NCBI GenBank assembly: GCA_028713935.1
Contig: JAQTNI010000004.1
Location: forward strand, 11,756 to 43,755
Direction of reading: 5' to 3'
DNA: 32,000 nucleotides
Source of the DNA: Candidatus Iainarchaeum sp.
Lineage (GTDB): Archaea > Iainarchaeota > Iainarchaeia > Iainarchaeales > GCA-2688035
Numbering within the stretch: position 1 is the first letter of the stretch; every line of letters begins with the position of its first letter. The notes beneath the pieces were generated by a model that was not told the DNA's origin, searched no databases, and worked only from the letters and a program-made list of their open reading frames with translations. The translations under genes were made by a program, and so were the position numbers. Below, one piece after another: positions 10,371 through 22,762 of the stretch.

Positions 10371-11948
10371 TTGTCCTCTGTAAAAAAATTTTCAAGGCAG
10401 ATAATTGCACTGGTTGAAGAAGGCAAAATAAAAAACAAGCAGGAGCTTAATAAAAAAAAGCTTTTTTTGTGCAAAAAATTTTTTTTGAAACAGGTGCCTT
10501 CAAACCCGGATATCCTGGCTTTTGCGAAAAACCCAAGCGCTGCAACAAGGCGCATTCTCGGGATAAAGCCGACAAGAACCCTTTCCGGAATTGCAATTGT
10601 GGCATTAATGCCCCCGCCTTCAAACTGCCCTGGCAAATGCATTTATTGCCCCAATTCTTTGATAAAAGAAAAAACACCAAAAAGTTATACTGGCAGGGAA
10701 CCTGCAACAATGCGCGCAGTAATGTCCGGTTTCAGCGCAAAAAAACAAATTTTTGCAAGGCTGAAATCACTGGAAGAAACAGGGCATAACACTGGCAAAA
10801 TTGAATTGGTTGTAATGGGCGGGACTTTTTTGGCTTCCCCTCTTCCAAAGCAAAAAAAATTTGTTCTGGACTGCCTGAACACTGTTTCAGGAAAAAAAAC
10901 TGTTTCGCTTGAAAAGGCGCGCCTCTTTTCCGAAAAATCAGAAAAGCGCATTGTGGGAATGGCTTTTGAAACAAGGCCTGATTTTTGCGGAAAAAAAGAA
11001 ATTGGCAATATGCTTTCTTTTGGAGCCACGCGCGTTGAGCTTGGAGTCCAAAATGTTTTTGACGATGTTTACAAAAAAATAAACAGGGGACATTCAGTTG
11101 CGGATGTTGCAAAAGCAACCCAATTGCTCAAAGATTCTTCTTTCAAAGTAACCTATCATTTCATGCCGGGCCTGCCTGGCAGTTCTTTCAAGAGGGATTT
11201 GCTTGGAATAAAAAAAATTTTTTCAGAACAACAATTCAGGCCTGATTCATTGAAAATTTATCCCTGCCTTGTAATTGAAGGCACAGAGCTTTTTGAGCAA
11301 TGGAAAAAAGGCCTTTTTGAGCCGCTTTCAACTGAAAGTGCTGTGAGGCTTGTTTCAAAAATAAAGGAATTTGTGCCTTCTTATGCGAGAATAATGCGGG
11401 TGCAGAGGGACATTCCCCATACTCTTGTAAAGGCGGGAGTGCAGAAAACAAATTTGAGGCAGCTTGTTGCAGACCACATGCACAAAACTGGCAGAAAGTG
11501 CAATTGCATCCGCTGCAGGGAAGCAGGCTTGCTTTCCCTCAAAAATGAGCCTGTTTCTTTTCTGGAAAAGGGAAAAATTTTTGTTGAGCCTTATGATGCG
11601 AGCAATGGAAAAGAATTTTTTATTTCTTTTGAAAATCCTTCAAAAAGCGTTTTGTATGGGTTTGCAAGATTAAGAATTCCTTTTCAGCCTTTTCGAAAAG
11701 AAATTTCAGCCGAAACCGCTGTTATCCGCGAGCTGAGGGTTTTTGGAGAATCCCTGCCATTGGCTTCTTCAGAGCCATCTGCTTTCCAGCACAAGGGCCT
11801 TGGAAAAATGCTTTTGCAGAAAGCAGGGGAAATTGCGCTTTCTCAGGATTCAAAAAAGCTCCTTGTAATTTCCGGCTTGGGCGTGAAACAATATTACTTT
11901 TCGCTTGGCTTTGAAAGTGATGGCTTTTTTGTTTCAAAAAAACTCTGA
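10371..11948 (+). CDS. elp3: Elp3-type tRNA U34 modification enzyme (radical SAM + GNAT)
   Basis: Radical-SAM cluster motif CPGKCIYCP, followed by the Elp3 core (VMGGTF, FETRPD, RVELGVQ). The C-terminal GNAT motif is HKGLGKMLL. It has a TTG start with no nearby in-frame ATG. Confidence 0.9.
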   Translation: MSSVKKFSRQIIALVEEGKIKNKQELNKKKLFLCKKFFLKQVPSNPDILAFAKNPSAATRRILGIKPTRTLSGIAIVALMPPPSNCPGKCIYCPNSLIKEKTPKSYTGREPATMRAVMSGFSAKKQIFARLKSLEETGHNTGKIELVVMGGTFLASPLPKQKKFVLDCLNTVSGKKTVSLEKARLFSEKSEKRIVGMAFETRPDFCGKKEIGNMLSFGATRVELGVQNVFDDVYKKINRGHSVADVAKATQLLKDSSFKVTYHFMPGLPGSSFKRDLLGIKKIFSEQQFRPDSLKIYPCLVIEGTELFEQWKKGLFEPLSTESAVRLVSKIKEFVPSYARIMRVQRDIPHTLVKAGVQKTNLRQLVADHMHKTGRKCNCIRCREAGLLSLKNEPVSFLEKGKIFVEPYDASNGKEFFISFENPSKSVLYGFARLRIPFQPFRKEISAETAVIRELRVFGESLPLASSEPSAFQHKGLGKMLLQKAGEIALSQDSKKLLVISGLGVKQYYFSLGFESDGFFVSKKL

Positions 11949-11997
11949 TTTTTGCCTTGGGAAAAAATAATTAAGCCCATTGCACTTATTTTACTGC

Positions 11998-13132: not shown

Positions 13133-14668
13133 TCATTCATAAGCCCTTTTTGTTTCTCCCTTGCTATAGTTTTCCCAGGCTGTTTTTTCAAGCTTTTCAC
13201 CAAAAGAAGTTGGATACCTGCCGTTTAAGCATGCCATGCACAAATCACTGCTTCCTGTTTCCAAGCCTATTCCTTTTACAAGGCCCTCAATTGGCTGGTA
13301 TGCAAGCGAATCAGCCCCCATGTGTTGCCTGATTTTTTCAAGCTCGCTTTCCGACAATTCAACCTGAATATTTTCAAGTGCAATGCCTTTTTTTGGTGCA
13401 GCAATAAATTCCCCAAATGTTGACATGTCAATTCCATAAAAACAGGGAAACCTTATGGGTGGGCAGCTTACCCTTACATGGACTTCTTTTGCTTTTCCTG
13501 TTTCCTTTATGTATTTTACAATTGCCTTTGTAGTGGTGCCCCTTACAATGCTGTCTTCCACTAAAATGACTTTTTTTCCGCTGACAACTTTTTTGTTTAT
13601 CCCGTATTTTTCCCTTGCTTTTTCAAACCTGTTATCCCCTTCTATGAAGGTTCTTCCCACATACCTGTTCCTGATTATGCCTTCCCTGCTTGGCGCGCCA
13701 AGTGAAAAGGCAAGCGCGTCTGCAGCCGGTTTTGCAGTGTCAGGCACTGGAACAACAATGTGCTCTTCTGAAATTTTTTCTGTTTCAATTTTTGCCAGTT
13801 CTTCTCCCAGGGCATAGCGTGCATTGTAAACATTGACTCCCTCTATTTCCGAGGCAATGTTTGCAAAATAAACCCATTCAAACATGCAATGCGCTTTTCT
13901 CTGGCTTTTGCAGAACCATTTTTTTTCAATGCAGCCATTGTGCATTTCAATCAGGGCGCCCGGCTTTACTGTTTCAAATTTTTCAATGCCAATGCTTTCA
14001 AGCGAAGCGCTTTCGCTTGCAGCCGCAATAACTCCGTCTTTTTTTCCTATGACAAGCGGCTTGAACCCAAGATGGTCTCTTGCAACAACTGTTTCGCCTT
14101 CGGCATTTACAAAGGCAATGCTGTAAGCCCCGTCAAGTGCAGGGTGCAAGCTGGAAAAAACATCCACTATTTTTGGCCTGGAATCCCCCCTGCAGCCTCT
14201 TGCAAGAAAGTGCATCATCAGTTCAGTGTCATTATCAAGGACAAAATGATACTGGTTTTTTTCCAGGTCTTTTTTTAATTCTGAAAAATTTGCAATGTTT
14301 CCGTTAAAGCAAAAGCTGAACCATTTCCATTTTCTGCCGTGTTTTCTTTCAAAGGGCTGTGCAAAAGCCTTTTTGTTGCCGCCAAAGGTTGAATACCTTA
14401 AATGCCCAATCCCCTTTGAACCAAAAAATTTTTTCATTGTGCCATTAAAAGCAGCAGTGTTCTGGACTTTGAAAACCTCATTTACAAGGCCTGTTTCCCT
14501 GAGAGTGCTCAGCAACTTTTTTTTTGAAGTGTTGAAAGTAGTTATTCCCGCGCTTAGCTGGCCCCTGTTTTGTTCCTGCAAAAGCATTTTGTACAAATAG
14601 TAAGCTGCATTTTCCTTTTCAGGAACGCAGGCAGCCGCAATTCCGCATTCTTCCTTTGCTTCTCCCAT
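13133..14668 (-). CDS. purF: Amidophosphoribosyltransferase (glutamine PRPP amidotransferase)
   Basis: A short propeptide precedes the nucleophile Cys (MGEAKEE|CGIAAA). Ntn glutaminase domain is present. PRPP-binding motif is VILVEDSIVRGTT. The C-terminal Cys residues are consistent with an Fe-S type PurF. Confidence 0.9.
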   Translation of the reverse strand: MGEAKEECGIAAACVPEKENAAYYLYKMLLQEQNRGQLSAGITTFNTSKKKLLSTLRETGLVNEVFKVQNTAAFNGTMKKFFGSKGIGHLRYSTFGGNKKAFAQPFERKHGRKWKWFSFCFNGNIANFSELKKDLEKNQYHFVLDNDTELMMHFLARGCRGDSRPKIVDVFSSLHPALDGAYSIAFVNAEGETVVARDHLGFKPLVIGKKDGVIAAASESASLESIGIEKFETVKPGALIEMHNGCIEKKWFCKSQRKAHCMFEWVYFANIASEIEGVNVYNARYALGEELAKIETEKISEEHIVVPVPDTAKPAADALAFSLGAPSREGIIRNRYVGRTFIEGDNRFEKAREKYGINKKVVSGKKVILVEDSIVRGTTTKAIVKYIKETGKAKEVHVRVSCPPIRFPCFYGIDMSTFGEFIAAPKKGIALENIQVELSESELEKIRQHMGADSLAYQPIEGLVKGIGLETGSSDLCMACLNGRYPTSFGEKLEKTAWENYSKGETKRAYE

Positions 14669-14708
14669 GTTACAACCCAAAAACAATAATACAATAAGAA
14701 TATGATTT

Positions 14709-15752
14709 TTAATACTGCAGTTTGAATTTTAAAATAGCAGCAATTCCGCCAAACCCTTCAAGTTTTTTTCCAGGTTCCTGTTCTGCATTGATTATGTGCA
14801 CAATGCCCTTGTTTTTTTCAGTTGCATCCATCAGGGAAATAATTTTTTCCCTGTTTTCAAAAAGCAGTTTGTCAAGCACAAGCAGTTCTTTTGCAGCGCC
14901 AAGTTCCACTGCTTTTTTCACCTGTTCAAATCCGTATTCCGCAAAACCAGTGTTTTTTCCCATGTTCAAAAGCAATTCTTCCAAAAGCCTTTCTTCAAGG
15001 ACAATCTGCTTTTGCCTTGAAATTTTGTCCAAAACATCGCTTTTCAATAATTCTCTCAGGCCAGTAATTCCAGTTGAATTTGTGCTTGCAAACAATGCCC
15101 CTGCAAAGCCTTTTTCCTGAAGCCATTTTTTCAAAGCATCTTTTTCAAAGCCAGGCCCTGCAAAAACAATTGTGCCCGCCTTGATTTCCTTTGCTTTTTG
15201 CAGGATTTCTGAAAAATATTTTTTTTGGGAGCCTTCTTCCTGTTCAAATCTTTTTCCTCTTGAAGAACCCCTTACAAGGCCTCTTGGTTCCAATTCAAAT
15301 TCCTTCAAGAGGCCAAAGCTTGCGCTTTCTTCATCCAGAACAATTAACAGTGTGTTTTCGCTTTGCGAAGCCTTTTTTGCCTTTTCAAGCCTTTCAACCT
15401 GGTAATTTTTCAATTCCTTTTTTTTGATTGAAACAGGCTTGTTTAATTCTATTTCAATTGTCTGGTGAGAGCCAAGCTCTTCAAATTCTGCAGGGGAACA
15501 TTCAACAAGCACTCCCTGTGCCCTTAATTGCCCTGAAAACCTGTGAAAATCAAGCTTTTCAATTTCAATTGAAACAAACAGCTTTACTCTTTCGGATTTT
15601 TGCTCAACATCCTTTGCCTTTATTCTCCTGTCAGTCTCTCCGCTGACCAAGTCTCCTTTTTCAATCACTTTTTCCAAATGCCACAAGTCATCTGCATTTT
15701 CTGGAACGACTTTTAGCAGATTAAGCTTCCTGTCAATTGAAAGAATTTTCAT
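14709..15752 (-). CDS. pelA: Pelota (aRF1-like mRNA surveillance / ribosome rescue factor)
   Basis: MKILSIDRKLNLLKVVPENADDLWHLEKVIEKGDLV is the typical Pelota N-terminal Sm-like domain. The eRF1-like central and C-terminal domains follow. The start is at ATG 15752. Confidence 0.9.
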   Translation of the reverse strand: MKILSIDRKLNLLKVVPENADDLWHLEKVIEKGDLVSGETDRRIKAKDVEQKSERVKLFVSIEIEKLDFHRFSGQLRAQGVLVECSPAEFEELGSHQTIEIELNKPVSIKKKELKNYQVERLEKAKKASQSENTLLIVLDEESASFGLLKEFELEPRGLVRGSSRGKRFEQEEGSQKKYFSEILQKAKEIKAGTIVFAGPGFEKDALKKWLQEKGFAGALFASTNSTGITGLRELLKSDVLDKISRQKQIVLEERLLEELLLNMGKNTGFAEYGFEQVKKAVELGAAKELLVLDKLLFENREKIISLMDATEKNKGIVHIINAEQEPGKKLEGFGGIAAILKFKLQY

Positions 15753-15835
15753 TTTCCCACAAAAAACAAGTGCAGGGAACAATTTAAAACTGTTTTAATG
15801 CACGATTATTTTGTTGCAAATTAACGTGATTTGAT

Positions 15836-15901
15836 ATGGCTGGTTTTACAAAAGGAAAGCAGCGAGTAGCTGTTGTTGACAAAGAAAAAGGTATCAATGG
15901 T
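15836..15901 (+). pseudogene. Diverged duplicate of the first 22 codons of abcE1 (non-functional 5' fragment)
   Basis: MAGFTKGKQRVAVVDKEKGING compared with MAGFSKGKMRVAVIDKDICING at 17527-17592: 16/22 aa and 46/66 nt identical by hand alignment. About 25 nt upstream are also similar, including a shared GTGATTT. The first Fe-S cysteine is lost, and the reading frame runs into unrelated hydrophobic sequence. Confidence 0.75.
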
Positions 15902-16046
15902 AGGTGTCATATTTGTTTTTTAATTGGGACAACGCTACTTTTTTTGTTATTTTCTTCCAATCTTCTCCGTCTCCAATTAACCAAATTTTTTCTTAGGGCT
16001 CGAATTTCATTAGCTTTGACGGCAATTGCCGTTTAGCGAGGAAGAT

Positions 16047-16098
16047 TTATAAATACTATTAATTTACTATTGATAGTAATCAATAGTAATTGATAGTG
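16047..16098 (+). promoter_or_regulatory. TATA-like box plus nested inverted and direct repeats upstream of the AlbA_2 gene
   Basis: TTTATAAATA lies at 16047-16056. The inverted repeat CTATTGAT (16067-16074) / ATCAATAG (16079-16086) has a 4-nt spacer. The direct repeat ATTGATAGT occurs at 16069-16077 and 16089-16097, 20 nt apart. The GTG start is at 16098. Confidence 0.4.
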
Positions 16099-17495
16099 TG
16101 ATTTTTTTGGATTTGAAGCAAGTTTTACAAGTCATTGATTCGGGGGAATCCCAAGAAATTGAGTTTAAGGAATCTTTTCATAGTTCTCAAAAGTTTTCCG
16201 AGATAATGTGTGGTTTTGCAAATACTTATGGGGGCATAATCCTATTGGGGGTTAATAACAAAAAGCAGGTTATTGGTGTTTTGGACAAAATTGATGAAGT
16301 GCAACAAAAAATATCGTGTTCTGCCCAGTCTGTTTCTCCTCCAGTACTGCCTTCTATTGAAGTTCATGAAGTGAACGGAAAAAAAATTGTTGCAATAGTT
16401 GTCCAGCGGGCTATTGATAGTGCTTTTCATACTTTTCAGGGGGTGATTTGGGTAAAAATAGGCAGCACTCTTAAAAAAATAGAAGGAAACCAAATTGTAG
16501 ATTTTTTGAGAGGCAAACAAATATTGTGTTTTGATGAAACTCCAACAAATGCTAAAATTGAAGACTTGGACATAAACAAGCTGAATGCATATCTCAAAGC
16601 AAGAAAGCAAGCAGATTATTTCGAATCGCATTCTATTGAGGATTTTCTTGTGAGTCTAAAGCTTGCTACAAAAAACGGGGATTTAAAAATAAAAAATGCA
16701 GCTTTGCTGGTTTTTGCAAAAGACCCCATTTTTTTTAATCCGCAAATAGAAATGAAACTAGTCCGTTTTGATGGCAACGAACCAGTAAAAATAATAGCTC
16801 ATGAACTGGTTCAATCTGGCTTAGTAGAAGGGATAGAAAAGGCACTTTCATTTGTTAAGTCAAATATTTCCAAAAGCATTCAAGTAAAGCTTGATGCAAA
16901 AAGAGAGGAGCAATTCCAATACCCAATAGATGTTATACGAGAAGCAATAGTAAATGCGGTTGCACACAGGGATTATTTCAGCAAAGATGCCATACAAATT
17001 TATATTTTTAATGATCGCCTTGAAATAACTAATCCGGGTTCTTTGCCACTGGGCCTGCCAAGAGAATTGTTTGGAACCCTCTCTGTTCAACGAAATCCTC
17101 TGACATATAGAATACTTAGAGACTATGGCTATGTTGAAGGCCTTGGCTCTGGGGTGCCGAGAATGATAAACAGCATGAGAAAACAGGGATTAGCTGATCC
17201 GGACTTTGGGATATATGAACATTTTTTTAGAGCAATATTAAAAAGCAGGCAAAGTTCATCAAAGCCAACCAAGAGTCATGCTGACCTTAATAAAAGGCAA
17301 ATAAAAGCAATAGAATTCTTAGGGAAAAACAAGTCAATAAAAACAAAAACATACATGAAAATAAACAATGTTTCATTTGGCACTGCAAGGCTTGACATTA
17401 ACGAAATGATAAAATTAAGCTATCTTAAAAAAATAGGTTCTTACAAGGGAGCTTACTATATACTAAAAACTCAAGAACCAAGTAAAGAGGATTAA
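16098..17495 (+). CDS. AlbA_2 (Schlafen-like) + HATPase_c_4 + C-terminal wHTH protein (COG2865-type 'RecG-like' putative regulator/ATPase)
   Basis: N-terminal AlbA_2 pattern ESQEIEFKESF...GFANTYGGIILLGV. Central REAIVNAVAHRDY...ITNPG (HATPase_c_4). The C-terminal LNKRQIKAIEFL...SYLKKIGSYKGAYYIL looks like a wHTH. Confidence 0.82.
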   Translation: MIFLDLKQVLQVIDSGESQEIEFKESFHSSQKFSEIMCGFANTYGGIILLGVNNKKQVIGVLDKIDEVQQKISCSAQSVSPPVLPSIEVHEVNGKKIVAIVVQRAIDSAFHTFQGVIWVKIGSTLKKIEGNQIVDFLRGKQILCFDETPTNAKIEDLDINKLNAYLKARKQADYFESHSIEDFLVSLKLATKNGDLKIKNAALLVFAKDPIFFNPQIEMKLVRFDGNEPVKIIAHELVQSGLVEGIEKALSFVKSNISKSIQVKLDAKREEQFQYPIDVIREAIVNAVAHRDYFSKDAIQIYIFNDRLEITNPGSLPLGLPRELFGTLSVQRNPLTYRILRDYGYVEGLGSGVPRMINSMRKQGLADPDFGIYEHFFRAILKSRQSSSKPTKSHADLNKRQIKAIEFLGKNKSIKTKTYMKINNVSFGTARLDINEMIKLSYLKKIGSYKGAYYILKTQEPSKED

Positions 17496-17526
17496 TTTTT
17501 ATTTTGCCAATTTGATGTGATTTCTA

Positions 17527-19317
17527 ATGGCAGGGTTTAGCAAAGGGAAGATGCGTGTCGCAGTTATAGATAAAGATATTTGCATTAATGGCAACGGATG
17601 CAATTTTTATTGCGCCTCAGTTTGTCCCATTAATCGAAGTGGAAAAGAGTGTATTGTTTTGGGAGAAGACAACAAGCCTATTATTAATGAAGATTTGTGT
17701 ACGGGTTGCGGAATTTGCCCTAAAAAGTGCCCTGTTTTCTGTATAACAGTCATCAATCTTGCCTCTGAAAAGCATTCAACTCCTGTTCACCAATATGGCG
17801 TGAATGCTTTCAGGCTTTTCAATTTGCCAAATCCAAAGCAGAATTCTGTTGTCGGCTTGCTTGGCAGGAATGGAATTGGAAAAACAACTGCCTTGAGAGT
17901 GCTTGCCGGGCAATTAGTGCCGAATTTTTCTGTTTTTGAAAAGCCTGCTGATTACAAAAAAGCAATTGAATCTTTTAAGGGAAAAGAATTGCAGGGTTTT
18001 TTTGAAAGGCTTTCAAAAAAGCAAATCCGGCTTTCTTACAAGCCGCAAAAGGTTGATGAGCTTGCAGAAATTTTCAAGGGCAGGGTAGTAAGGGAACTGC
18101 TTGAAAAAGCAGATGAAAAAAAGCAATTATCAAAAATTGCAGCAGAATTGGGAATTGATTCCATTCTTGGCAGTGAAATTTCAAAGGTTTCAGGGGGAGA
18201 ACTGCAAAGAATTGCAATTGCAGCCTGTATGCTGAAAAAAGCTGATATTTATTTTTTTGATGAGCCTTCTTCTTACCTTGATGTTAGCCAGCGCTTAAAG
18301 GTCGCGGAATTGATAAGGGGCTTGCTTGATGAAAGCACCAGCATTATTGTTGTGGAGCATGACCTTGCGCTTTTGGACTATTTGAGTGATTATATTCACA
18401 TTTTTTATGGCCAAAAATCTGTTTATGGCATAGTGAGCGGCATTAAAAGCGTGCGCAATGGCATAAACGAGTTTCTTGATGGATTTCTCCCTGAAGAAAA
18501 CACAAGATTCAGGGAAAAAGAGCTTTCTTTTGGAGTAAAACCCCCTGTACTTTCAGAAAAGCGCAGGATACTTGTCGAATACCCTGTTTTGCAAAAAAAA
18601 CTCGGAAATTTTTCAATGCAGACAAGCGCAGGAAGCTTTATGGAAGGAGAAGTAGTCGGGGTTTTGGGGCCGAATGCAATTGGAAAAACAACTTTTGTAA
18701 AATGCCTTGCGGGAGAAATCCTGCCTGACAATGCAAAATTAAATTTCAAATTAAAAATTGCCTACAAGCCGCAATACCTTAAGCCTCCGGAAGAAGTGCT
18801 GGTGCGGCAATTGTTTTCTGCAAAAGAGATTAATCAGCAATTGTTTGAAACAGAGATTGACAGAAAGCTTAATATTAAAACACTGTTTGAACACAAGCTT
18901 TCCGAGCTGAGCGGAGGGGAACTGCAAAAAGTCAGCATTGCCTATAACCTTTGCCTTGGCTCTGACCTGATTCTTTTGGATGAGCCCTCCGCTTTCATTG
19001 ACATTGAGGACAGGTTAAGGGTTGCCGACTGCATAAGAAGCGTTGTTTCAAGCACAAAAAAAATTGCCTTGGTTGTTGACCATGACATTTTGTTCCAGGA
19101 TTACATTTCAGACAGGTTAATTGTTTTTTCAGGCCAACCTGCAAAACAGGGAATTGCTTCAAAGCCAATGCCGATGCACGAAGGCATGAACCTCTTTTTG
19201 AAAGAAATGAATATTTCTTTCAGGAGAGACCCCCAGACAGGCAGGCCAAGGGCAAACAAAATTGATTCCCAAAAAGACAAAGAGCAAAAAAAGAAAGGAG
19301 AATACTATTACCAATAA
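17527..19317 (+). CDS. abcE1: ABCE1 / RNase L inhibitor-type ribosome recycling ATPase
   Basis: N-terminal double 4Fe-4S ferredoxin domain (CINGNGCNFYCASVCP ... CTGCGICPKKCP). Two ABC cassettes are present, with Walker A GRNGIGKTT and GPNAIGKTT and signatures VSGGELQR and LSGGELQK. Confidence 0.94.
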   Translation: MAGFSKGKMRVAVIDKDICINGNGCNFYCASVCPINRSGKECIVLGEDNKPIINEDLCTGCGICPKKCPVFCITVINLASEKHSTPVHQYGVNAFRLFNLPNPKQNSVVGLLGRNGIGKTTALRVLAGQLVPNFSVFEKPADYKKAIESFKGKELQGFFERLSKKQIRLSYKPQKVDELAEIFKGRVVRELLEKADEKKQLSKIAAELGIDSILGSEISKVSGGELQRIAIAACMLKKADIYFFDEPSSYLDVSQRLKVAELIRGLLDESTSIIVVEHDLALLDYLSDYIHIFYGQKSVYGIVSGIKSVRNGINEFLDGFLPEENTRFREKELSFGVKPPVLSEKRRILVEYPVLQKKLGNFSMQTSAGSFMEGEVVGVLGPNAIGKTTFVKCLAGEILPDNAKLNFKLKIAYKPQYLKPPEEVLVRQLFSAKEINQQLFETEIDRKLNIKTLFEHKLSELSGGELQKVSIAYNLCLGSDLILLDEPSAFIDIEDRLRVADCIRSVVSSTKKIALVVDHDILFQDYISDRLIVFSGQPAKQGIASKPMPMHEGMNLFLKEMNISFRRDPQTGRPRANKIDSQKDKEQKKKGEYYYQ

Positions 19318-19363: not shown

Positions 19364-22300
19364 ATGCGTGTTGCTAAAATTTTGCCTTTGTTTTTTCTTG
19401 CTTCCTTATTCCTGTTTCTTGGCTGTGTTGGCAACCCGACAGCAGAGTTTAATAAGGCTAATTGCAATAGGCTGAATTCCCTTTATGGCTCTTTTCAAGG
19501 CGCTGTTTGTGCAAAAGAATTGACAAAAAGCTTTGCAGTGGAATTATCGCAATTGCAGCAGGCAGGCCACAAGGATATTGCAGACAACGTTCGCGCGGCA
19601 GCAGAAAAAAATTCCATTGTTTCCTATTCCTGCAATCAAAATAATCTGGATGCAGGGGTTGTTTTTAAGGAAGCCAGCATTTGCAGTGAAAACCAGGAGT
19701 GTGTCCAGTCGCAGAATATTGCTTCCTGCAAATCCGCAGTTAAAGCAACAGAAATTCCTTCTCTGGAAGAAATTTTGGATTTGTGGGATAAGCAGGAGTT
19801 GCCTGTAGTAAAAATCGATGCTTTTTGCGATGACTTGTATTCTGAACACAATAAGGGCAACAAGGTCATTGAATATGGCGCCAATAGTTCAAAGCGGGCA
19901 GATGGCACTGTTGATTATGCTTATTGGGTTAAAGCTGGTTATTGCGATCCAAGGCAGGGAAAAGAAAATAACAAGGTTGAAGTTCTTTGTGAACAGTTGG
20001 TTGGGGCGCGGTGGAAAAGCCCTGAGAGAAGTTTTGAATGGAAACTTACAGCGGCTTATTCCCCCTGTAGTGAAACCGAATCTTGTTCTGTGGTTTCAGA
20101 GTTTAATGCAAAGTGCGTTGTTCCCAGTGCCCAAGAATTATTAGGCGATTGTGAAACAATTTCAGGGGAAATTGGGGTAACTGGGCCTGAAGCTGTTCCT
20201 CCTGTTTCTTTTAATTATTCTTTTTTTGACAATCCTGATTTGGATAATGAAAAAGTTTTTTTGGACGGAGAACAATTTTTGATTAAATTGTACAGGAAAT
20301 TGGCACAATTTGAAAATTCCTACAGAAATTCCGAGTATTCAAAAACAGCCTATGCAGGTGACGAAATTGCAGGCCTAAAAGGAAAAGGCGCTTTTGCCGG
20401 AAAAGAACTCAAAATAAAAATTGTGGCAATAGTCCTGACTGAAGCTGCAGTTACTGCTTACCAGGCAAGGATGGAGTTATATGACTCTGAAGGCAATTTG
20501 GTTGATACCCAAACAGTTGGCGCAGGGGCATTTTTGAGCGATTTGTTTGTAAGCAGTGAAAACTATGTCCTTGCTGAAACAGTGTCTGTCCCAACAATAA
20601 CAATTGACAATTCAACTGGCAAGGGTTTTGCAATAGTAACAGTCAGGACAAGCCCAGATGAAAAGCAATTCAATAAAGATTCTGAGTTTGTTGTGCGATT
20701 GAGAACAGAGCGTTACACAACCCAAATGCTGCGGGATTTTGCTGATTTGCGCAACACACAATTTTTTTCTACGCCGGAATCGTTCAATAATAAGTGGTAT
20801 AAGTTTTTTGAAGAGCCGATAATCGATTTTGGCTTTACAAATGTTTCTGCCGGGGAATACAGGGCAAAAATGGTTTTTGATTGGGCAGAAGAGCCTTACA
20901 ATTTTTTTGACAGTGCAGGTAAGCCTGCTGTTAAAAGTGTTGGGGTAACACTGCAAAAAATTTCTAATCCTGCAGAAAAAGAGAAAAGCCCTTTTTTGGA
21001 ATTTTCTTTGGATTATGATTTGGCAGGGCAAAACCAAGGCAAGGCAAAGGAGTATGGAGCGCAATTTACAGGCTCTTCAAGCCAGGAAAATCTTATTTTG
21101 TATCAGGCATCTGGGCAGCAGACAGCAATGACCAGCCTCCTGGCTGGCGAGGCATACAAGCAGATTTTGTTAACAAGCCAGAATGATTTTAGTGCTTTGA
21201 ACAGTGCTGGCCAGAGGGGAAATGTGCTGGCAATGCATAATTCTGCGTCAAGCATGGCTGTGAGTTTTTCCCGTGCAATTCCTGTTGGCGCCTTGATTGA
21301 TTTGTCCAATAAAAATTCCGGCAGTTATCAATTGGAAACAATTGCAGGGGAACCCGCTGTTGGGCCTGATGTTTCAAGTTTTAATGAATGGGCCAATGCC
21401 TGTTCTGATTCTGTTTCCTCTTCCCTCCTTACTGTGCAGGATTCAAAAATTTCAGAGGGCCAATCAAATGATTCCTGCATTGGCGGTTATAAAATTGTTT
21501 TTGATTCCGGCAATCTCGGAGAAATTTTTGCACAAGCAATGTTTTTCACTCCAACAAACAATAATGAACAGGCAATTCTTTTGTCAAATTGCGGCACTAA
21601 AACTAATTTTGCAACAACTGAAAATTCAGCCCTGGTCAGCGGAACAATTCAATTGAATACCGCAAAAAACGGCCCTGCAATTCAATCAATTGAAAACCTT
21701 TTTGTGCAAATCAAAAATAAAAACATTTGTGTTGTGCGAAGCCCTGACAAAACAATTTTTGCCTGGAACAAAAAGGCATTTGAATCACAGCAGGAAAACA
21801 TTCTGCGCAGCCTGGGCATGGCTGATTACAGCCAATTGCCTGGCAATGGAGCAGGGGGATTCCAGCAGAATTTTGATTGCAATGTTGGAGATGAAAGCAC
21901 AGATTACCTGCTTTTTGACATTGACTCAGCAGCTTCCGAAGGCGATAAGGTAAAGGTCAGCCTGCATAATTCAATTGGCCATGGCCTTGCAGCTGTTTTT
22001 GACTCGGAAAACAATTTGATAGAAAGAGCCCCAGTATTTGAGGGAAGCTATTTGCAAGTGGTTATCCGGGATAAAACTGCCCTCAGAATTGGCTTGGCTC
22101 CCAGTTATAAAACAAAATGGGAAGACACCAAAAAAGATTGTTCCCTTGAAATTAACAAGCAGCCAGGCCATGAATTTTCAGCAACTCCCCAAAAAGTGCT
22201 CCTGGATTTTGACGGGGGCAATGATATTGTTGTGTATGACAGGGGGCCTTATTCATTCGGGCCTATGGATGCAGGAGAACTTAACCCGGAATTTGAAGGC

Positions 22301-22762
22301 CAAACAGGCATAATGAAAGAGCTCATAACCCAACTTGTCAGGGAGCAATATGCAGGATACAATGTAGAAATTTCAACTACTGATGAGCCTCTTCCAGCAG
22401 AGCCGTATTCCACTATTTATTTTGCGCCCATTGGGGATAAACTTTACCTGGGCCTTGCTGACGACATAGATAATTATAATTTTTTTTCTTCAGACAATGC
22501 AATTATTTACCTTAAAAGTTTTTCCGTGGATTCAATTGAAAAAACATCGCAAATGCTGGGCAATACAGCAAGCCATGAACTCGGGCATTTATTGGGGCTG
22601 TACCATGTTTCAGACAATGAGGATATCATGGTCCAAGGCAGGCCTTCGTGGTCTGCTACTGAAAGGCATGATTTTAAAACGTCAAGGCTTGTGGAAGTTA
22701 TTTTTCCAATTGGCAACCAGAATGCGCCGCAATTATTGGCTTGGGGCGTTGGTAAAAAATGA
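19364..22762 (+). CDS. Large secreted lipobox protein (1132 aa) with a C-terminal metzincin-type zinc metalloprotease motif
   Basis: Signal peptide ending in the lipobox-like LFLGC (Cys21, 19424-19426). A Cys-rich N-terminal region has a recurring C-S-E-x2-3-C-x7-9-C motif. HELGHLLGLYH (HExxHxxGxxH) lies at 22574-22606, followed by a candidate Met-turn (DIMV). Confidence 0.8.
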   Translation: MRVAKILPLFFLASLFLFLGCVGNPTAEFNKANCNRLNSLYGSFQGAVCAKELTKSFAVELSQLQQAGHKDIADNVRAAAEKNSIVSYSCNQNNLDAGVVFKEASICSENQECVQSQNIASCKSAVKATEIPSLEEILDLWDKQELPVVKIDAFCDDLYSEHNKGNKVIEYGANSSKRADGTVDYAYWVKAGYCDPRQGKENNKVEVLCEQLVGARWKSPERSFEWKLTAAYSPCSETESCSVVSEFNAKCVVPSAQELLGDCETISGEIGVTGPEAVPPVSFNYSFFDNPDLDNEKVFLDGEQFLIKLYRKLAQFENSYRNSEYSKTAYAGDEIAGLKGKGAFAGKELKIKIVAIVLTEAAVTAYQARMELYDSEGNLVDTQTVGAGAFLSDLFVSSENYVLAETVSVPTITIDNSTGKGFAIVTVRTSPDEKQFNKDSEFVVRLRTERYTTQMLRDFADLRNTQFFSTPESFNNKWYKFFEEPIIDFGFTNVSAGEYRAKMVFDWAEEPYNFFDSAGKPAVKSVGVTLQKISNPAEKEKSPFLEFSLDYDLAGQNQGKAKEYGAQFTGSSSQENLILYQASGQQTAMTSLLAGEAYKQILLTSQNDFSALNSAGQRGNVLAMHNSASSMAVSFSRAIPVGALIDLSNKNSGSYQLETIAGEPAVGPDVSSFNEWANACSDSVSSSLLTVQDSKISEGQSNDSCIGGYKIVFDSGNLGEIFAQAMFFTPTNNNEQAILLSNCGTKTNFATTENSALVSGTIQLNTAKNGPAIQSIENLFVQIKNKNICVVRSPDKTIFAWNKKAFESQQENILRSLGMADYSQLPGNGAGGFQQNFDCNVGDESTDYLLFDIDSAASEGDKVKVSLHNSIGHGLAAVFDSENNLIERAPVFEGSYLQVVIRDKTALRIGLAPSYKTKWEDTKKDCSLEINKQPGHEFSATPQKVLLDFDGGNDIVVYDRGPYSFGPMDAGELNPEFEGQTGIMKELITQLVREQYAGYNVEISTTDEPLPAEPYSTIYFAPIGDKLYLGLADDIDNYNFFSSDNAIIYLKSFSVDSIEKTSQMLGNTASHELGHLLGLYHVSDNEDIMVQGRPSWSATERHDFKTSRLVEVIFPIGNQNAPQLLAWGVGKK

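Follow-up and report, generated by a model that had tools for sequence, protein, structure and literature searches.

A Schlafen-type gene module bracketed by a diverged duplication of the abcE1 5′ end in an Iainarchaeal contig: a candidate case of homology-driven insertion-duplication

In a 32-kb stretch of the Candidatus Iainarchaeum sp. contig JAQTNI010000004.1 (hereafter the window; all coordinates are positions in it unless a locus is named, and L-numbers such as L001 or L006 denote comparison loci), a single Schlafen-type gene with its own promoter lies between two diverged copies of the 5′ end of abcE1, the gene for ABCE1/RLI. The insert is absent from the closest relatives, and the promoter and gene recur as one module in unrelated surroundings, at some of which they are likewise bracketed by repeats of local host sequence. 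We give about an even chance to the explanation that this horizontally mobile single-gene module entered the 5′ end of abcE1 by homologous recombination, without a recombinase encoded by the element. The features of the locus are as follows.

14709–15752, minus strand: pelota (eRF1-like), the native left neighbour, with Pfam matches eRF1_1/2/3 and 78–80% identity to pelota of L006 and L001
15753–15805, no strand: native intergenic DNA between the divergent genes, carrying the promoter element TTTAAA and colinear with the corresponding DNA at the empty sites of L006 and L001
15806–15919, plus strand: copy A, a dead, diverged abcE1 5′ fragment comprising ~30 nt of upstream sequence and ~28 codons (ATG at 15836; alignment score 34)
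15836–16036, plus strand: open reading frame (ORF) of 66 aa in which copy A runs on into the spacer, without a Pfam match and with a tail lacking homologues
15920–16037, no strand: spacer S1, 118 nt, outside the conserved module
16038–16106, plus strand: conserved module leader with a TATA box and TACTATYAAT repeats, showing DNA homology to more than 15 unrelated loci
16107–17495, plus strand: Schlafen cargo gene (SLFN_AlbA_2, HATPase_c_4/GHKL and a C-terminal winged helix-turn-helix, wHTH) with a TTG start, identified by Pfam, motif and fold matches
17497–17610, plus strand: copy B, the promoter-proximal region and first 28 codons of the intact abcE1, a native-like allele by its resemblance to L006
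17527–19317, plus strand: intact abcE1 (ABCE1/RLI), 596 aa, with Pfam matches Fer4_21 and two ABC_tran

The segments at 15806–15919 and 17497–17610 form a pair of direct repeats, now diverged, that cover the promoter-proximal region of abcE1 and its first ~28 codons. Codons 1–22 of the two copies (15836–15901 and 17527–17592) align in register at an offset of 1691 nt and agree at 46/66 nt and 16/22 aa, exactly the figures given in an earlier note made from the letters of this DNA, and 16 of the 25 nt upstream of both ATGs are also identical. The homology extends over ~115 nt; it starts near −30 (15806/17497), shows in-frame indels of codons beyond codon 22 and ends at about codon 28 (15919/17610). 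The longest exact run is 7 nt today. When the copy-B segment was compared with the rest of the window, the top ungapped local score was 34 and fell at copy A, as against 10–15 in 30 shuffles and 12 on the reverse strand. Copy A is a gene fragment and not a complete ABCE1/RLI, because it is cut at about codon 28, has lost the first Fe-S cysteine (changed to Gly, with altered CxxxC spacing) and gives no Pfam match in its ORF; the 66-aa ORF that it opens is probably not a gene. The intact protein has the Fe-S domain and two ABC domains of ABCE1/RLI and is 82–85% identical to Iainarchaeal proteins named RLI in their source records. Its public gene call is 588 aa long and begins at Met9. Since the N-terminal MAGFSKGK ahead of Met9 (17527–17550) is kept as MxGFxKGK in L006, L022, L024 and copy A, the 596-aa start at 17527 is favoured and is probably correct.

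The heptamer GTGATTT, which the earlier note had offered as a further mark of the duplication, does stand ahead of both ATGs (15826–15832 and 17517–17523), but it is no independent evidence and was dropped as a marker, because it also precedes the start of the inserted gene (16098–16104) and is not enriched in the window (10 occurrences against 7.1 expected); it is probably a ribosome-binding or translation-initiation signal. A scan of the whole window for other long direct repeats returned a single weak pair, with a seed of 10 that would miss the A/B pair as well.

By its ABCE1 homologues the window belongs to the Iainarchaeota/Diapherotrites, within DPANN. The closest relatives by ABCE1 identity, L006 (85%) and L001 (82%), both carry an empty site, in which pelota and abcE1 are directly divergent and only 68 and 54 nt apart, respectively. 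Synteny is kept around these sites, on the purF-pelota side in L006 (the L001 contig begins inside pelota) and on the side of the large downstream ORF in L001. Empty sites of the kind that the earlier note had proposed to look for do exist. The pelota-proximal intergenic DNA of the window is colinear with them up to ~15805, copy A occupies the place of the native abcE1 start, and therefore 1691 nt have been inserted. In L022 (ABCE1 77% identical) the gap between pelota and abcE1 holds a different insert (L022:685–2243) with three small genes, one of them encoding a PIN-domain protein, and no flanking repeats, and gaps of 0.2–2 kb are also found in L002, L003 and L005; the gap is a variable spot in this clade. 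An exact-sequence look-up found no other contig with an identical ABCE1 or Schlafen protein.

When the window was compared by blastn with 80 metagenomic loci and several genomic ones, DNA homology to the insert began sharply at 16038–16046 and stopped at the stop codon of the cargo gene, and the neighbourhoods outside these edges were unrelated. The moving unit is therefore ~1.46 kb long (16038–17495) and consists of a TATA box, a repeat leader and one gene, the only gene between copies A and B, whose AlbA_2/HATPase_c_4 assignment in the earlier note agrees with Pfam. The module recurs, at 55–77% protein identity, in over 60 contigs; these come from several lineages of DPANN and Altiarchaeota, and its surroundings in them are unrelated. 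Homologues of its protein number more than 1,200. Since many cargo homologues are 56–77% identical across groups labelled Nanoarchaeota, Altiarchaeia, Micrarchaeota, Woesearchaeota and Diapherotrites, between which ABCE1 identity is only 43–52%, the cargo gene moves horizontally. The GC content of the module is 0.33–0.37, compared with 0.39–0.42 in the flanks. A scan of IMG/VR viral contigs for the module found none.

We then compared the 900 nt upstream with the 900 nt downstream of each cargo homologue, a scan in which scores were usually 9–18 and reached 20–24 in a few loci. Direct repeats of local host sequence, 48–233 nt long, bracket the module in 9 of ~55 distinct loci (the window and eight others), and ~85% of the module loci have no flanking repeat. 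The search for AlbA_2 genes between gene-fragment duplications that the earlier note had proposed thus turned up the same cargo at other sites, with the following repeats.

L027: 5′ end of pantoate kinase (PoK), ~160 nt
L083/L084: hsdM start codon and 16 codons, identical in two different samples
L029: at least the last 35 codons of the upstream gene
L040: conserved hsdS C-terminus
L085: 3′ end of a convergent gene
L038 and L055: repeats of unidentified sequence
L049: pieces of an insertion sequence (IS) transposase, a different case

Wherever the flanking genes could be read, the host gene is intact and the fragment lies on the opposite side of the module. The downstream repeat is flush with the module stop codon in the window, L029, L040 and L085, and at the left junctions unrelated spacers of 0 to ~200 nt intervene; such imprecise junctions with non-homologous spacers are expected of random fragments, not of transposition. 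The distance from repeat to repeat is 1577–1922 nt in eight loci (the window, L027, L029, L038, L040, L055, L083 and L085), even though their repeats and spacers differ. No flanking repeats were found around 64 control genes of 300–800 aa from the same loci (maximum score 23) or around two other small accessory insertions, a MNT-HEPN insertion in L109 and the three-gene PIN insert of L022. For L027, empty sites are provided by L109 and L111–L113, which keep fibrillarin-PoK-PPS uninterrupted with a kinase of 277 aa.

Three of these loci deserve a description of their own. In L027, the intact PoK downstream of the module has gained a 38-aa N-terminal extension (L027:7379–7492; 342 aa, compared with 277 aa in relatives), with its ATG one base after the Schlafen stop codon, which suggests that PoK is co-transcribed or translationally coupled with the inserted gene. 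In L109 (5892–6865), and also in L110, a pair of NTP_transf_2 (MNT) and HEPN genes lies between pantoate kinase and PPS, relative to L112 and L113. In L049, two DDE_Tnp_1 pieces (214–888 and 2372–2941) that share a 227-nt repeat enclose the module and ~30 nt of the gene that follows it in L046; this looks like an IS-associated capture of the same module, and L049 was excluded as an instance of the same mechanism, its flanking repeats being pieces of IS transposase.

The differences within the repeat pairs resemble those between alleles of a working gene. In seven coding repeat pairs, with 66–123 comparable sites per locus, differences at codon positions 1, 2 and 3 numbered 18, 14 and 45 (45/77 at third positions; p = 5e-6 against one third, and p = 0.008 against 0.44, our estimate for one neutral and one constrained copy), and codon differences were synonymous in 32 cases and non-synonymous in 28, including an AGT/TCT serine switch. 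At abcE1, identities over the first 22 codons were 0.70 for A-B, 0.74 for A-L006, 0.77 for A-L024, 0.82 for B-L006 and 0.83 for L006-L024. Quartet bootstraps on these 66 sites joined A and B as sisters in 0–12% and B with L006 in 76–82% of replicates, and 8 of 11 A-specific changes, polarised by hand with L006, fell at third codon positions. Copy B and the 16 nt just upstream of it are as L006-like as the rest of the gene (0.79–0.82), and sliding identity along abcE1 against L006, L001, L022 and L024 revealed no clear recombinant tract. The third-position bias and the non-sister relation of A and B therefore favour the view that the copies are alleles of different lineages; B agrees with the rest of the gene, and the odd one out is A. 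This supports the view that one copy is foreign and neither a product of local decay nor an assembly artefact, but it probably reverses the polarity proposed in the earlier note, in which the incoming DNA had brought a replacement 5′ end: because B groups with the orthologue of the closest relative, L006, and the dead A is the outlier, the incoming DNA most likely supplied fragment A, which is probably the donor allele.

These results can be accommodated by an insertion-duplication driven by homology. The incoming DNA would have been a ~1.7 kb segment of a diverged relative whose own abcE1 was immediately preceded by the module, and would have contained the module, 118 nt of passenger DNA and the donor abcE1 promoter with the first ~28 codons. 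Once this segment had circularised, one crossover of the Campbell type, close to the left end of the 115 nt of homology, would insert the whole circle and give the order pelota, truncated and mostly donor-derived copy A, spacer, module and native abcE1 with its own core promoter (copy B). The essential abcE1 would stay intact throughout, because the duplicated piece includes promoter and start codon. Spacer S1 is presumed to be passenger DNA from the donor context; neither blastn nor tblastx gave a homologue of it in any fetched locus or in the rest of the window. The layout is that of a Campbell-type insertion, with direct repeats of the target locus around the insert and one intact and one truncated copy. 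In E. coli conjugation with one-sided homology, most recombinants arose by a single crossover of a circularised molecule and carried target duplications of 109–950 bp (PMC3240628).

Several points weigh against this explanation. The donor-type arrangement, that is, the module directly upstream of an intact abcE1 and without a repeat, was not found among the examined loci (what precedes abcE1 in L024 is a gene with no relation to the module), and the nearest relatives of the module are only ~76% identical. At 70–80% identity over 115 nt, a homologous crossover would have a very low efficiency unless donor and recipient were far more alike when it happened, and the longest exact match between A and B is only 7 nt today. 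In addition, for a module of ~1.46 kb the repeat spacing of 1577–1922 nt in eight loci is narrower than random fragments predict, which hints at module-specific excision or at strong selection for minimal inserts, and the phylogenetic signal comes from 66 sites. The narrow spacing leaves room for a module-specific step, on which a second reading is based: an integrase-less cassette, either a circle of ~1.6–1.9 kb that carries a captured piece of a host gene as a portable homology arm (an 'att site by homology') and enters the same gene in other archaeal lineages, or a module whose own nuclease-ATPase-HTH protein acts on the TACTATYAAT repeats and promotes excision or insertion with long target duplications. 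We regard such an active or semi-autonomous cassette as unlikely, and as less likely than homology-driven insertion-duplication.

Closest to the favoured insertion-duplication is homology-facilitated illegitimate recombination (HFIR) of a linear donor, in which the abcE1 body would recombine and the other end would join illegitimately at about codon 28, so that copy A would be native and copy B, with some downstream sequence, donor-derived. It would yield the same architecture and the same allele-like repeat differences, it accounts for the non-homologous spacer at the A/S1 junction, and it is a documented process that has been invoked for orphan modules in type VI secretion system (T6SS) and Rhs arrays (PMC5361080; PMC3240628). 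However, copy B and its upstream 16 nt resemble L006 as closely as the rest of the gene does while copy A is the outlier, no recombinant tract was seen along abcE1, and in E. coli the duplications came from single crossovers whereas true HFIR gave deletions (PMC3240628); we therefore hold HFIR to be rather unlikely. A step further down we place an active mobile element that would make widely staggered breaks and thus create long, variable target-site duplications de novo, with copy A being a decayed copy B. The repeats are indeed specific to the module (present at 9 of ~55 loci, absent around all 64 control genes and both of the other accessory insertions), the inserted length stays within a narrow range, the downstream repeat is flush with the stop codon in four loci, and the protein combines a nuclease-type Schlafen domain, a GHKL ATPase and a DNA-binding wHTH beside conserved repeats at the left end of the module. 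Nevertheless, the repeat differences lean to third positions that are synonymous, copies A and B are not sisters, unrelated spacers of 0–200 nt lie at the left junctions, terminal inverted repeats are lacking, ~85% of the loci have no repeat, and no known Schlafen protein is a recombinase, the family being described as tRNA-cleaving defence nucleases (PMC13056530), all of which makes such an element distinctly improbable.

An older origin is also conceivable, in which insertion and local duplication happened in the ancestor of the clade, copy A is an old paralogous fragment, and L006, L001 and L024 lost the insert precisely by recombination between the repeats. Such recombination between direct repeats would restore a perfect empty site, and the position of A outside the B/L006/L024 cluster fits a duplication before the split; we still consider this history quite doubtful, given that it needs at least three independent precise losses instead of one gain, that 8 of 11 changes on the A branch (hand polarisation) are at third positions and its indels keep the frame, a pattern not expected of a dead fragment, and that the module GC lies below that of the flanks. 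Still less credit is due to the idea that an integrase-borne integrative element, or a cis-mobilisable satellite, once targeted the abcE1 5′ end with a replacement end and survives here as a remnant whose integrase is gone; we take this to be very unlikely even though the layout resembles attL/attR with a rebuilt gene end. Gene ends that are duplicated and have partly diverged are left in this way by SXT in prfC and by e14 and phage 21 in icd. Against this, the window contains no integrase or piece of one and the spacer nothing coding, the repeats share no identical core, the insert amounts to the promoter-gene module known from other loci, the repeats at those loci come from unrelated genes (abcE1, PoK, hsdM, hsdS and others) and so offer no single att specificity, and the module is absent from IMG/VR viral contigs. 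A chimeric assembly that joined two strains is hardly credible at all. The contig is of metagenome type, and the contigs L040 and L055 terminate exactly in their repeats (they are not circular contigs, because the terminal repeats are non-identical), but copies that are 70% identical share no k-mers of assembler length, the same architecture occurs in independent assemblies and pipelines (NCBI metagenome-assembled genomes, JGI and ENA), and L083 and L084 are identical in two different samples.

With homology-driven insertion-duplication as the favoured explanation, the locus can be compared with known systems. With Campbell-type insertion-duplication, as made with suicide plasmids or in E. coli conjugation (PMC3240628), it shares direct repeats of the target locus (50–950 bp), one intact and one truncated copy and no need for an element recombinase; it differs in having arisen naturally, in DPANN archaea, with a homology arm that is diverged (xenologous), and in recurring with one predicted defence-gene module at different host genes. 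HFIR (de Vries and Wackernagel 2002 and Prudhomme et al. 2002, as cited in PMC5361080) likewise brings in foreign DNA through one homologous anchor and an imprecise second junction and leaves orphan gene fragments beside new cargo, but its classical form usually deletes recipient DNA instead of duplicating it, and the native look of copy B is a better fit to a single crossover. What is shared with integrative elements that rebuild gene ends is that an essential or conserved gene is kept intact by an incoming homologous gene end and that a diverged partial duplicate is left. Elements of this kind include the tRNA-targeting islands, SXT/R391 in the prfC 5′ end, and e14 and phage 21 in the icd 3′ end, and they rely on an integrase of their own, a short core of identical sequence and a single constant target. 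The abcE1 locus has none of the three.

In the main, the interpretation offered in the earlier note holds up. Where that note had left site-specific and homology-driven integration side by side and drawn the analogy to tRNA ends, the homology-driven half is favoured, while for the site-specific half there is no integrase, no att core and no constant target. We found no integrase anywhere in the 32 kb, as that note had said, and no transposase either, and Pfam on all large ORFs gave only housekeeping families; the only tRNA of the window, at 454–530, is 15 kb from the insert. An integrase-mediated element was thus rejected as a candidate (no integrase gene, no identical att core with 7 nt as the longest run, and targets that are unrelated between loci), and so was a DDE transposon or IS (no transposase, no inverted repeats pairing the ends, and duplications of 48–233 nt that are not of fixed length, the exception being L049 with its DDE_Tnp_1 pieces). 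A diversity-generating retroelement was rejected as well, there being no reverse transcriptase in the window and the repeat differences involving all bases and being mostly synonymous.

To call the locus a new kind of cargo insertion, as the earlier note had considered, is too strong, as single-crossover insertion-duplication is documented experimentally (PMC3240628). The class of mechanism is known, and what is new is its recurrent natural association with one Schlafen module of predicted defence function in DPANN archaea, including at the ends of essential genes; recurrent use of insertion-duplication by one Schlafen module in DPANN archaea was not found in the literature searched. The genomes of DPANN archaea are tiny, mobile elements can be recognised in them only rarely, and cultured genetic systems are lacking, so that their gain of accessory and defence genes is poorly understood. 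The present locus and its counterparts would provide a concrete route, in which a self-contained promoter and Schlafen module crosses phylum-level boundaries and lands in the ends of essential genes (abcE1, pantoate kinase) without an integrase, the disrupted gene end being restored by a duplicated xenologous fragment. If this is general, short diverged duplications of gene ends would be scars that can be searched for in uncultured archaea to trace gene gain by recombination, and the fragments would also record the donor lineage. The comparison also defines the regulatory leader of an abundant archaeal Schlafen family.

The leader accounts for what the earlier note had described as repeat-rich non-coding DNA: the repeats are there, but they belong to the conserved promoter/operator of the inserted gene, which begins only after the 118-nt spacer. 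Its TATA box TTTATAAA at 16046–16053 is followed by direct and inverted TACTATYAAT repeats in an operator-like manner, and the array at 16046–16106 has equivalents in nearly all homologous loci, with TTTATAAA, then TACTATCAATTTACTATCAATT and then the inverted ATTAATAGTA. Many homologous loci have a second, distal repeat cluster at −100 to −150. The array is presumably a binding site for the module protein's own wHTH. In L031 (1350–1690) the module promoter/operator is present as ~5 tandem copies of 76 nt, with TACTATYAAT from −338 to −24, a local amplification of the leader. Rfam over 14500–18500 gave nothing but a chance small-RNA match.

The cargo protein carries a Schlafen/AlbA_2 domain (PF04326, E = 1.8e-21) and a GHKL part (PF13749, HATPase_c_4), with the Ex4ExK motif as ESQEIEFK at residues 14–21; among 35 cargo homologues, E17, E22 and K24 are nearly invariant. 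A model of the protein gave Foldseek fold matches to SLFN11/12/13, 3lmm, wHTH and the PDH-kinase fold, a weak DeoR-type match places the C-terminal HTH at residues 396–452, and PADLOC matched the protein to the SLFN-GHKL part of its pAgo model. No homing nuclease domain (LAGLIDADG, GIY-YIG, HNH or similar) was found in it, only SLFN_AlbA_2 and HATPase_c_4, and a free-standing homing endonuclease gene was rejected as a candidate on this ground. It thus has the parts of the prokaryotic Schlafen HisKinase-HTH type, namely an Ex4(E/D)xK nuclease domain, a fused GHKL/HisKinase-like ATPase and an HTH; the motif definition is that of PMC13056530, in which this type is the second commonest among prokaryotic Schlafens and the family is shown to be anti-phage tRNA nucleases. 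We predict from this domain composition that the cargo is a defence gene. The module is adjoined by restriction-modification or GmrSD genes in at least 13 of 84 loci, and such restriction-modification neighbours are frequent for the HisKinase-HTH defence nucleases too (PMC13056530), with which it shares the Schlafen/AlbA_2 domain with Ex4ExK, the GHKL ATPase and the C-terminal HTH. On the other hand, the conserved promoter/operator and the insertion into housekeeping gene ends are not described in PMC13056530, where the word 'mobile' does not occur.

Two further features of the window were observed. A 1132-aa ORF at 19364–22762 has a marginal Matrixin (zinc-protease motif) match near its C-terminus and also lies downstream of abcE1 in L001, with 53% identity over the C-terminal 700 aa. 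Around the 3′ end of an ELP3-like radical-SAM gene, a 47-nt direct repeat occurs at 11333–11379 and 11912–11958, 579 nt apart and 70% identical.

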